Part shown: positions 47,426-49,971 of the stretch, piece by piece
Position numbering within the stretch: the stretch's first letter is position 1
Layout of the letters: every line of letters begins with the position of its first letter
NCBI RefSeq assembly: GCF_003334815.1
Contig: NZ_QOWO01000002.1
Length of the DNA stretch: 64,000 nucleotides
Source: Escherichia coli
GTDB taxonomy: Bacteria; Pseudomonadota; Gammaproteobacteria; Enterobacterales; Enterobacteriaceae
Direction: 5' to 3' (one strand)
Notes under the pieces: generated by a model
The model's database searches: none
Told to the model about the DNA's origin: nothing
Seen by the model: only the letters and a program-made list of their open reading frames with translations
Translations under genes and position numbers: made by a program

Positions 47426-49971
47426 TGAACAATAACGATCTCTTTCAGGCATCACGTCGGCGTTTTCTGGCACAACTCGGCGGCTTAACCGTCGCCGGGA
47501 TGCTGGGGCCGTCATTGTTAACGCCGCGACGTGCGACTGCGGCGCAAGCGGCGACTGACGCTGTCATCTCGAAAGAGGGCATTCTTACCGGGTCGCACTG
47601 GGGGGCTATCCGCGCGACGGTGAAGGATGGTCGCTTTGTGGCGGCAAAACCGTTCGAACTGGATAAATATCCGTCGAAAATGATTGCCGGATTGCCGGAT
47701 CACGTACACAACGCGGCGCGTATTCGTTATCCGATGGTACGCGTGGACTGGCTGCGTAAGCGCCATCTCAGCGATACCTCCCAGCGCGGTGATAACCGTT
47801 TTGTGCGCGTGAGCTGGGATGAAGCCCTCGACATGTTCTATGAAGAACTGGAACGCGTGCAGAAAACTCACGGGCCGAGTGCCTTGCTGACCGCCAGTGG
47901 TTGGCAATCGACGGGGATGTTCCATAACGCTTCGGGGATGCTGGCGAAAGCTATTGCCTTGCATGGTAATAGCGTTGGTACGGGCGGAGATTAATCTACC
48001 GGTGCTGCGCAGGTGATCCTGCCGCGCGTAGTCGGTTCGATGGAAGTGTATGAACAGCAAACCTCCTGGCCGCTGGTATTGCAGAACAGCAAAACCATTG
48101 TGCTGTGGGGCTCCGATTTGCTGAAAAACCAGCAAGCGAACTGGTGGTGCCCGGATCACGATGTTTATGAATATTACGCGCAGCTAAAAGCGAAAGTCGC
48201 CGCCGGTGAAATTGAGGTCATCAGCATCGATCCGGTTGTCACATCCACCCATGAGTATCTGGGGCGCGAGCATGTGAAGCACATTGCGGTTAACCCGCAA
48301 ACTGACGTGCCGCTGCAACTGGCGCTGGCACATACGCTGTACAGTGAAAACCTGTACGACAAAAACTTCCTTGCTAACTACTGTGTGGGTTTTGAGCAGT
48401 TCCTGCCGTATCTGCTGGGTGAGAAAGACGGTCAGCCGAAAGATGCCGCATGGGCTGAAAAACTGACCGGCATTGATGCCGAAACCATTCGTGGGCTGGC
48501 GCGGCAGATGGCGGCGAACAGAACGCAAATTATTGCTGGCTGGTGCGTGCAGCGTATGCAGCACGGTGAACAGTGGGCGTGGATGATTGTGGTTCTGGCG
48601 GCGATGCTGGGGCAAATTGGCCTGCCAGGTGGTGGTTTTGGTTTTGGCTGGCACTACAACGGCGCAGGCACGCCGGGGCGTAAAGGCGTTATTCTGAGTG
48701 GTTTCTCCGGCTCTACGTCGATTCCGCCTGTTCACGACAACAGTGACTACAAAGGCTACAGCAGCACTATTCCGATTGCCCGTTTTATCGATGCGATCCT
48801 CGAACCGGGGAAAGTGATCAACTGGAACGGTAAATCGGTAAAACTGCCGCCGCTGAAAATGTGTATTTTTGCCGGAACTAACCCATTCCATCGCCATCAG
48901 CAGATCAACCGCATTATTGAAGGCTTGCGCAAGCTGGAAACGGTTATCGCCATAGATAACCAGTGGACCTCAACCTGCCGCTTTGCCGATATCGTACTGC
49001 CTGCGACCACGCAGTTTGAGCGTAACGATCTCGACCAGTACGGCAATCACTCCAACCGTGGCATTATCGCCATGAAACAGGTGGTGCCGCCGCAGTTCGA
49101 GGCGCGCAACGACTTCGATATTTTCCGCGAGCTGTGCCGTCGCTTTAATCGCGAAGAAGCCTTTACCGAAGGGCTGGACGAAATGGGCTGGCTGAAACGC
49201 ATCTGGCAGGAAGGTGTACAGCAAGGCAAAGGACGCGGCGTTCATCTGCCAGCGTTTGATGACTTCTGGAATAACAAAGAGTACGTCGAGTTTGACCATC
49301 CGCAGATGTTTGTTCGCCACCAGGCATTCCGCGAAGATCCGGATCTCGAACCGCTGGGCACGCCGAGTGGCCTGATTGAGATCTACTCGAAAACTATCGC
49401 CGATATGAACTACGACGATTGTCAGGGGCATCCGATGTGGTTTGAGAAAATCGAACGCTCCCACGGTGGGCCTGGCTCGCAAAAGTATCCGTTGCATCTG
49501 CAATCTGTGCATCCGGATTTCCGACTTCACTCGCAGTTATGTGAGTCGGAAACGCTGCGTCAGCAATATACGGTAGCGGGTAAAGAGCCAGTATTCATTA
49601 ACCCGCAGGATGCCAGCGCGCGCGGTATTCGTAACGGTGATGTGGTACGCGTCTTTAACGCTCGCGGTCAGGTGTTGGCAGGGGCAGTGGTTTCTGACCG
49701 CTATGCACCCGGCGTGGCACGAATTCACGAAGGGGCATGGTACGATCCAGATAAAGGCGGCGAGCCTGGTGCGCTGTGCAAATACGGTAACCCCAACGTG
49801 TTGACCATCGACATCGGTACATCGCAGCTGGCGCAGGCGACCAGTGCGCACACTACGCTGGTGGAAATTGAGAAGTACAACGGAACAGTGGAGCAGGTGA
49901 CGGCGTTTAACGGCCCCGTGGAGATGGTGGCGCAGTGCGAATATGTTCCCGCGTCGCAGGTGAAATCATGA
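47425..49971 (+). pseudogene. torA: torA, TMAO reductase molybdoenzyme catalytic subunit, interrupted by one in-frame TAA at 47992-47994 (after codon 189)
   Basis: ORFs 47425..47994 (Tat signal SRRRFLAQL plus N-terminal domain) and 48013..49971 are in the same frame, separated only by TAA; total span 2547 nt equals an 848-codon gene plus stop. Confidence 0.8.

Follow-up and report, generated by a model that had tools for sequence, protein, structure and literature searches.

The window, a 64,000-nucleotide stretch of E. coli DNA, is collinear with E. coli K-12 MG1655 (NC_000913.3, about 1011053-1075831), and it contains the same torCAD/torR/torT/torS neighbourhood with tor boxes that surrounds torA in K-12. 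In window coordinates, the features of this cluster are:

41603-44347, minus strand: torS, intact, identical to MG1655, LR-03, FORC064 and NCTC9087
44430-45458, plus strand: torT, intact ORF with P196L (C>T at 45016)
45431-46123, minus strand: torR, intact, with only a K-12-specific synonymous difference at 46016
46142-46204, plus strand: three perfect copies of the tor box, CTGTTCATAT, at 46142, 46152 and 46195 between torR and torC, in an intergenic region identical to MG1655
46253-47425, plus strand: torC, ORF intact, with a private W250S change (TGG>TCG, codon 47000-47002, G>C at 47001)
47425-49971, plus strand: torA, 848 codons with 1 internal stop, very probably a pseudogene (null allele)
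47425-47994, plus strand: N-terminal torA fragment ORF, 189 aa, ATG start, with the twin-arginine signal and the first part of domain I, stopping just short of the catalytic Ser191
47992-47994, plus strand: premature TAA in place of Tyr190 (TAC>TAA, C>A at 47994), followed by T, which gives a UAAU context
48013-49971, plus strand: downstream torA ORF, 652 aa, GTG start, in frame with the 189-aa ORF and without a signal peptide
49968-50567, plus strand: torD, intact, its ATG overlapping the torA stop (ATGA)

Translation of 47425-49971 gives 848 codons and a terminal stop, and the sole internal stop is at codon 190, where the window reads GGC GGA GAT TAA TCT ACC with the TAA at 47992-47994. The 189-aa and 652-aa ORFs that result are 18 nt apart and jointly cover all but 7 residues of TorA. 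Precomputed Pfam assignments place Molybdopterin_N and Molybdopterin in the 189-aa ORF and Molybdopterin and Molydop_binding in the 652-aa ORF. The latter is a remnant of torA and not a separate gene. Members of the TorA/DMSO reductase family (type III Mo-bisMGD enzymes) are made as a single uninterrupted polypeptide of ~850 residues that spans the Molybdopterin and Molydop_binding domains, and the split into two ORFs means that the window's torA lacks this property. The original prediction had held that an in-frame TAA splits torA after codon 189 and that both ORFs lie in one frame and together make up a full-length, 848-codon TMAO reductase; the ORF list and the translation agree with it in coordinates, frame and lengths.

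In MG1655 codon 190 of torA is TAC (Tyr190, NC_000913.3 1059823-1059825), and the C>A change at window 47994 (MG1655 1059825) is the only torA difference between the two sequences, with 2546 of 2547 positions identical. The close phylogroup-A relatives LR-03, FORC064, NCTC9087 and NCTC86 likewise have TAC at this position, such that an in-frame stop stands where the orthologues have a sense codon. The tyrosine that had been expected at this codon is thus what MG1655 and four near relatives encode, and one substitution is indeed enough to account for the interruption. We matched torA in 5,421 of 5,426 complete E. coli genomes, where the best matches, among them the annotated torA of K-12 and of many other strains, covered the full gene (100% coverage) with 1 mismatch. 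The 101 nt centred on the stop had no exact match in the 5,426 genomes, the best being 99.0% identical (1 mismatch). This comparison with other E. coli torA sequences had been proposed as a check on the original prediction, and it came out in its favor: the gene is uninterrupted in all close comparators, and hence the stop is not a chance feature of the ORF list.

Over its whole length the window differs from MG1655 by 15 substitutions and two 1-bp deletions and is without IS1D. We defined private changes by comparison with MG1655 and 4 of the nearest complete genomes (LR-03, FORC064, NCTC9087 and NCTC86). Six of the differences from MG1655, including the synonymous torR change at 46016, are K-12-specific, as the window agrees with the other four strains at these sites. 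NCTC86 torS differs from the window at 42428 and 44175. Eight changes are private to the window:

17314: C>A, intergenic
31251: etk W636*
31792 and 32082: etk, two 1-bp deletions
45016: torT P196L, C>T
47001: torC W250S, G>C
47994: torA Y190*, C>A
60952: rutB, synonymous

All six private substitutions are at G:C pairs (C>A twice, C>T twice, G>C and G>A), with one of the five coding ones synonymous, and from their sequence pattern they look like recent, largely unselected spontaneous mutation. We also considered an engineered origin, given the regular spacing of 45016, 46016, 47001 and 47994, and rejected it because 46016 is the K-12-specific synonymous change.

The same TAA was found, with 0 differences over loci of 7-21 kb, in GCA_965212685.1, GCA_012802195.1, GCA_002190155.1, GCA_012531265.1, GCA_003334815.1 and the Logan assembly of SRR10357323, in addition to 5-7 further similar contigs. 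In GCA_965212685.1 and Logan SRR10357323 a true stop is followed by the 652-aa ORF, with 100% identity over 15.1 kb and 19.2 kb, respectively, and the Logan SRR10357323 contig shows no difference from the window over 34.6 kb in all. These two contigs end inside the window, at 52531 (GCA_965212685.1) and 56612 (SRR10357323), so neither can be the source assembly of the window. The remaining four assemblies were found by exact look-up of the 652-aa ORF, TorC(W250S) and TorT(P196L); they have T, C and A at 45016, 47001 and 47994 and no differences from the window. Four of the five NCBI carrier assemblies list no gene between torC and torD, and an absent torA product is as expected if the gene had been annotated as a pseudogene in them. 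The allele is thus reproducible in independent sequence data, namely five NCBI assemblies together with Logan assemblies. The original prediction had left two choices, a very recent null allele or a base-call error. The presence of the same TAA with identical flanks in the five NCBI assemblies, and in several SRA runs that were assembled independently, supports the former and excludes the latter, which we rejected.

An exact look-up of the 189-aa protein gave matches in 53 index blocks. We rejected the reading that these are as many TAA carriers, as 8 of the 10 places among the matches listed (L009-L016) are contigs that end at 47991-47993, an artefact of selection by exact-sequence look-up. 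A contig end at this point leaves a called product of 189 residues, and therefore these eight contigs say nothing about the TAA; their backgrounds vary, some being K-12-like, and they stop short of the variable base and are without the private torC and torT changes. Contig ends near the stop were possibly helped by branching of the assembly graph at the polymorphic third codon position.

The contig accessions of GCA_002190155.1 are LYBH01, and a published table equates LYBH00000000 with strain ECOR03 (PMC13293308). At least one TAA carrier is therefore ECOR03, a member of the ECOR reference collection. Since all carrier contigs are identical, they are possibly repeated sequencings of ECOR03 alone or else of a very tight clone, and the stop could have arisen in a stock culture, ahead of distribution of the collection, rather than in nature. 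In the literature, the table equating LYBH00000000 with ECOR03 aside, we found no paper that describes a torA pseudogene in E. coli or the carrier accessions.

The position of the stop within the protein bears directly on what the fragments could do. The N-terminal fragment begins MNNNDLFQASRRRFLAQL, the twin-arginine signal of TorA, with SRRRFLAQL at residues 10-18, and over residues 1-189 it matches the solved E. coli TorA (9h4t) exactly and aligns to Shewanella TorA (1tmo) and Rhodobacter DMSO reductases. The K-12 enzyme (trimethylamine N-oxide reductase 1, b0997; DMSO reductase family, Mo-bisMGD) has the same Tat signal but TAC in place of TAA at codon 190, whereas the frame in the window is cut one residue before the catalytic serine. 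In an alignment that spans the stop, with Tyr put back at codon 190, GDYSTGA is an invariant motif of 9h4t, 1tmo, 4dmr and 1dms, and TorA Ser191 aligns with residue 147 of 1dms. We take Ser147 to be the molybdenum ligand of DMSO reductase, as has reportedly been established for that enzyme. The stop replaces the Tyr of GDYSTGA, so the codon for the Mo-coordinating serine lies downstream of it and the family motif is not completed. Residues 190-196 (YSTGAAQ), with Ser191 among them, are absent from both the 189-aa fragment and the product that would start at GTG 48013. Because the stop directly precedes the serine that aligns with the Mo ligand, we infer that neither torA fragment would be able to give active enzyme.

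The remainder of the tor system had been described as an otherwise intact operon. This was borne out for the ORFs of torS, torT, torR, torC and torD and for the three tor boxes, but TorC has Ser in place of the Trp250 found in K-12. This Trp is invariant in 19 of 19 homologues with 47-98% identity, drawn from Escherichia, Providencia, Edwardsiella, Serratia, Pantoea, Photobacterium, Aeromonas, Citrobacter and others. The W250S change was found in none of the complete E. coli genomes searched. The exact TorC(W250S) protein occurs in 12 contigs only, and every one of them that was examined also has the TAA in torA. Judged from this conservation, W250S is probably damaging and would be a second private hit in the tor operon. 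It fits an operon that is no longer under selection, and it either followed the torA stop under relaxed constraint or preceded it.

TorT P196L is likewise absent from MG1655 and the four near relatives, but the exact protein was found in 84 index blocks. Identical TorT(P196L) occurs on E. coli backgrounds that are clearly divergent, with 51-62 differences over 7 kb, where it adjoins an intact 848-aa TorA. On this evidence P196L is probably a benign, tolerated polymorphism, either recurrent or recombined, and for the same reason we rejected it as a lesion that kills the regulon.

Elsewhere in the window, the tyrosine kinase gene etk of the gfc group 4 capsule operon (30978-33156, minus strand) has three disrupting lesions that none of the five comparators shares. 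The lesions, W636* at 31251, a 1-bp deletion in a G run at 31792 and a 1-bp deletion at 32082, leave the gene as four ORF pieces of 374, 161, 164 and 83 aa. None of these lesions was found in the complete E. coli genomes searched. Eight Logan contigs from two or more runs, SRR3951465 among them, contain the same etk fragments, and this recurrence indicates that the lesions are real in the ECOR03-type clone. In the gfcA-cspH intergenic region (38715-38723) the IS1D of MG1655 and its target duplication are absent, which leaves an empty site like that of other phylogroup-A strains. An IS1 at this site reportedly silences the gfc operon in K-12. K-12 and the ECOR03-type clone may thus have lost the same capsule pathway by different routes, the former through IS1 and the latter through the etk lesions.

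Several other explanations of the torA stop have to be weighed against an inherited null allele. Were it a base-call or assembly error, the strain would really have TAC or TAT and an intact torA. At the stop the window departs by just one base from all of the 5,426 complete genomes, and the pair of 1-bp etk deletions, of which one lies in a G run, could hint at assembly noise. However, the identical TAA stands in five NCBI assemblies and independent Logan assemblies without a difference over 7-21 kb, at least two of the carriers cannot be the source of the window, and the etk lesions themselves recur in independent runs. We consider an error extremely unlikely. A real stop might still be bypassed, by an ochre suppressor tRNA (for example, a tRNA-Tyr) encoded elsewhere or by appreciable natural readthrough, such that a working full-length TorA is made. 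A Tyr-inserting ochre suppressor would restore the exact wild-type sequence, and the remaining tor ORFs and the tor boxes have been retained. Nevertheless, we regard bypass as very unlikely. In the matching K-12 stretch a single tRNA gene is annotated, serT, and it is the same in the window as in MG1655, on which ground we rejected a suppressor tRNA encoded in the window. The TAA is followed by T, and UAAU is reportedly the most efficient termination signal in E. coli. Ochre suppressors are rare and costly in natural isolates. Programmed recoding involves a stop that is conserved among relatives and a recodable codon (UGA or UAG) with a signal or dedicated tRNA. Here all comparators have TAC, the allele is found in one clone, the codon is UAA followed by U, and serT, the tRNA gene considered within the window, is unchanged. 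In addition, the replacement of an invariant TorC residue suggests that selection on the operon has been relaxed. Formate dehydrogenases (FdnG, FdoG and FdhF) also have an in-frame stop near the Mo-ligand position in the gene of a Tat-dependent molybdopterin oxidoreductase, and in these enzymes the Mo ligand itself, selenocysteine, is encoded by UGA. The likeness to the torA stop is superficial, as the codon in torA is TAA and not TGA, the ligand of TorA is a serine, the residue replaced is not the ligand but the Tyr that precedes it, and the stop is absent from every relative examined.

The two ORFs might instead encode a split enzyme, in which the Tat-bearing 189-aa fragment and the product starting at GTG 48013 assemble and are exported together as an active two-piece TorA. 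The close spacing of the ORFs and their nearly complete coverage of TorA would suit such an arrangement, and the Tat system can export pre-assembled complexes. Yet the segment missing from both pieces is the one with Ser191, no obvious Shine-Dalgarno-like sequence was seen ahead of either GTG 48013 or the ATG that follows it, the two-ORF layout is restricted to a single clone and lacks conservation, and a 652-aa ORF is what gene callers put out after any upstream torA lesion. Such an enzyme has a vanishingly small chance of being real. A further proposal concerns not the effect of the stop but its cause, namely that inactivation of TMAO respiration by the torA stop and TorC W250S was selected for and did not arise by drift. 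In support of this, 3 of the 8 private changes are in the tor cluster and 3 in etk, which places 6 of 8 in ~5 kb of 64 kb, and neither set of lesions occurs in the complete genomes. The numbers are tiny, however, and the clustering was noticed after the fact. The occurrence of TorT P196L with intact TorA elsewhere leaves two tor hits, and once a first knockout is in place simple relaxation of constraint would be expected to let a second one in. The restriction of the private substitutions to G:C pairs (6 of 6) is as for unselected spontaneous mutation, and the pattern appears in one clone only, with no convergent recurrence of the torA allele. We therefore think adaptive loss improbable. There is a slim chance that either suppression or readthrough keeps TorA of ECOR03 partly functional, or the tor and etk hits together record selection against TMAO respiration and the group 4 capsule.

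Taken together, the data very probably reflect a genuine inherited ochre nonsense mutation by which torA became a pseudogene in a single natural strain, or tight clone, of phylogroup A to which ECOR03 belongs, an ordinary, recent and lineage-specific event. A C>A transversion turned Tyr190 (TAC) into TAA, and we propose that translation would end at UAA-U to give a 189-residue pre-protein fragment with the Tat signal. This fragment, lacking the Mo-ligand serine and all of the later cofactor-binding domains, would be unable to bind molybdopterin and would probably be degraded. Any restart at GTG 48013 would yield a cytoplasmic, signal-less fragment that also lacks Ser191 and should be inactive. 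The overlap of the torD ATG with the torA stop (ATGA) means that translation of torD is normally coupled to that of torA. Loss of this coupling, along with ~2 kb of untranslated torA mRNA, would be expected to lower torD expression by polarity. TorT, TorS and TorR would still sense TMAO and torCAD would be transcribed, with the main inducible TMAO reductase missing. As E. coli also has TorYZ and DmsABC for TMAO reduction, this activity would fall and not vanish, with minor activities left.

The interrupted gene is unquestionably E. coli torA. Its stop is a familiar type of event that is already known in kind, and the sequence is already in public assemblies. Like other strain-specific nulls of dispensable E. 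coli genes, the stop is one inactivating lesion, confined to one clone, in an accessory gene of respiration that is not essential, and its biological importance is small, as it adds one more case of a natural clone in which a dispensable gene of anaerobic respiration is inactivated. Its practical weight comes from ECOR03 being a widely used reference strain. Judging by its genome, ECOR03 is very probably a natural torA null with a suspect TorC as well, a warning that concerns users of the strain in work on anaerobic respiration, TMAO metabolism, Tat export and TorD chaperones. Look-ups of exact proteins can also mislead, since most of the public 189-aa matches, among those listed, are contigs ending at the site of the stop.

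A different disruption of torA was seen in the Logan assembly of SRR33161000, an unrelated E. coli dataset, where a Mu-type element with HTH_Tnp_Mu_1 genes lies in the 5' part of the gene (contig L021, 8108-9977, corresponding to window 47458-47979). The same 652-aa downstream ORF is called there, and the disruption is independent of that in the window. The lesion in the window is a point nonsense change and not an insertion or frameshift and, unlike other public torA disruptions, it is tied to a named reference strain, ECOR03. At codon 38 of matP (window 7545) the window differs from MG1655, the sole strain compared at this site, by Q38R.
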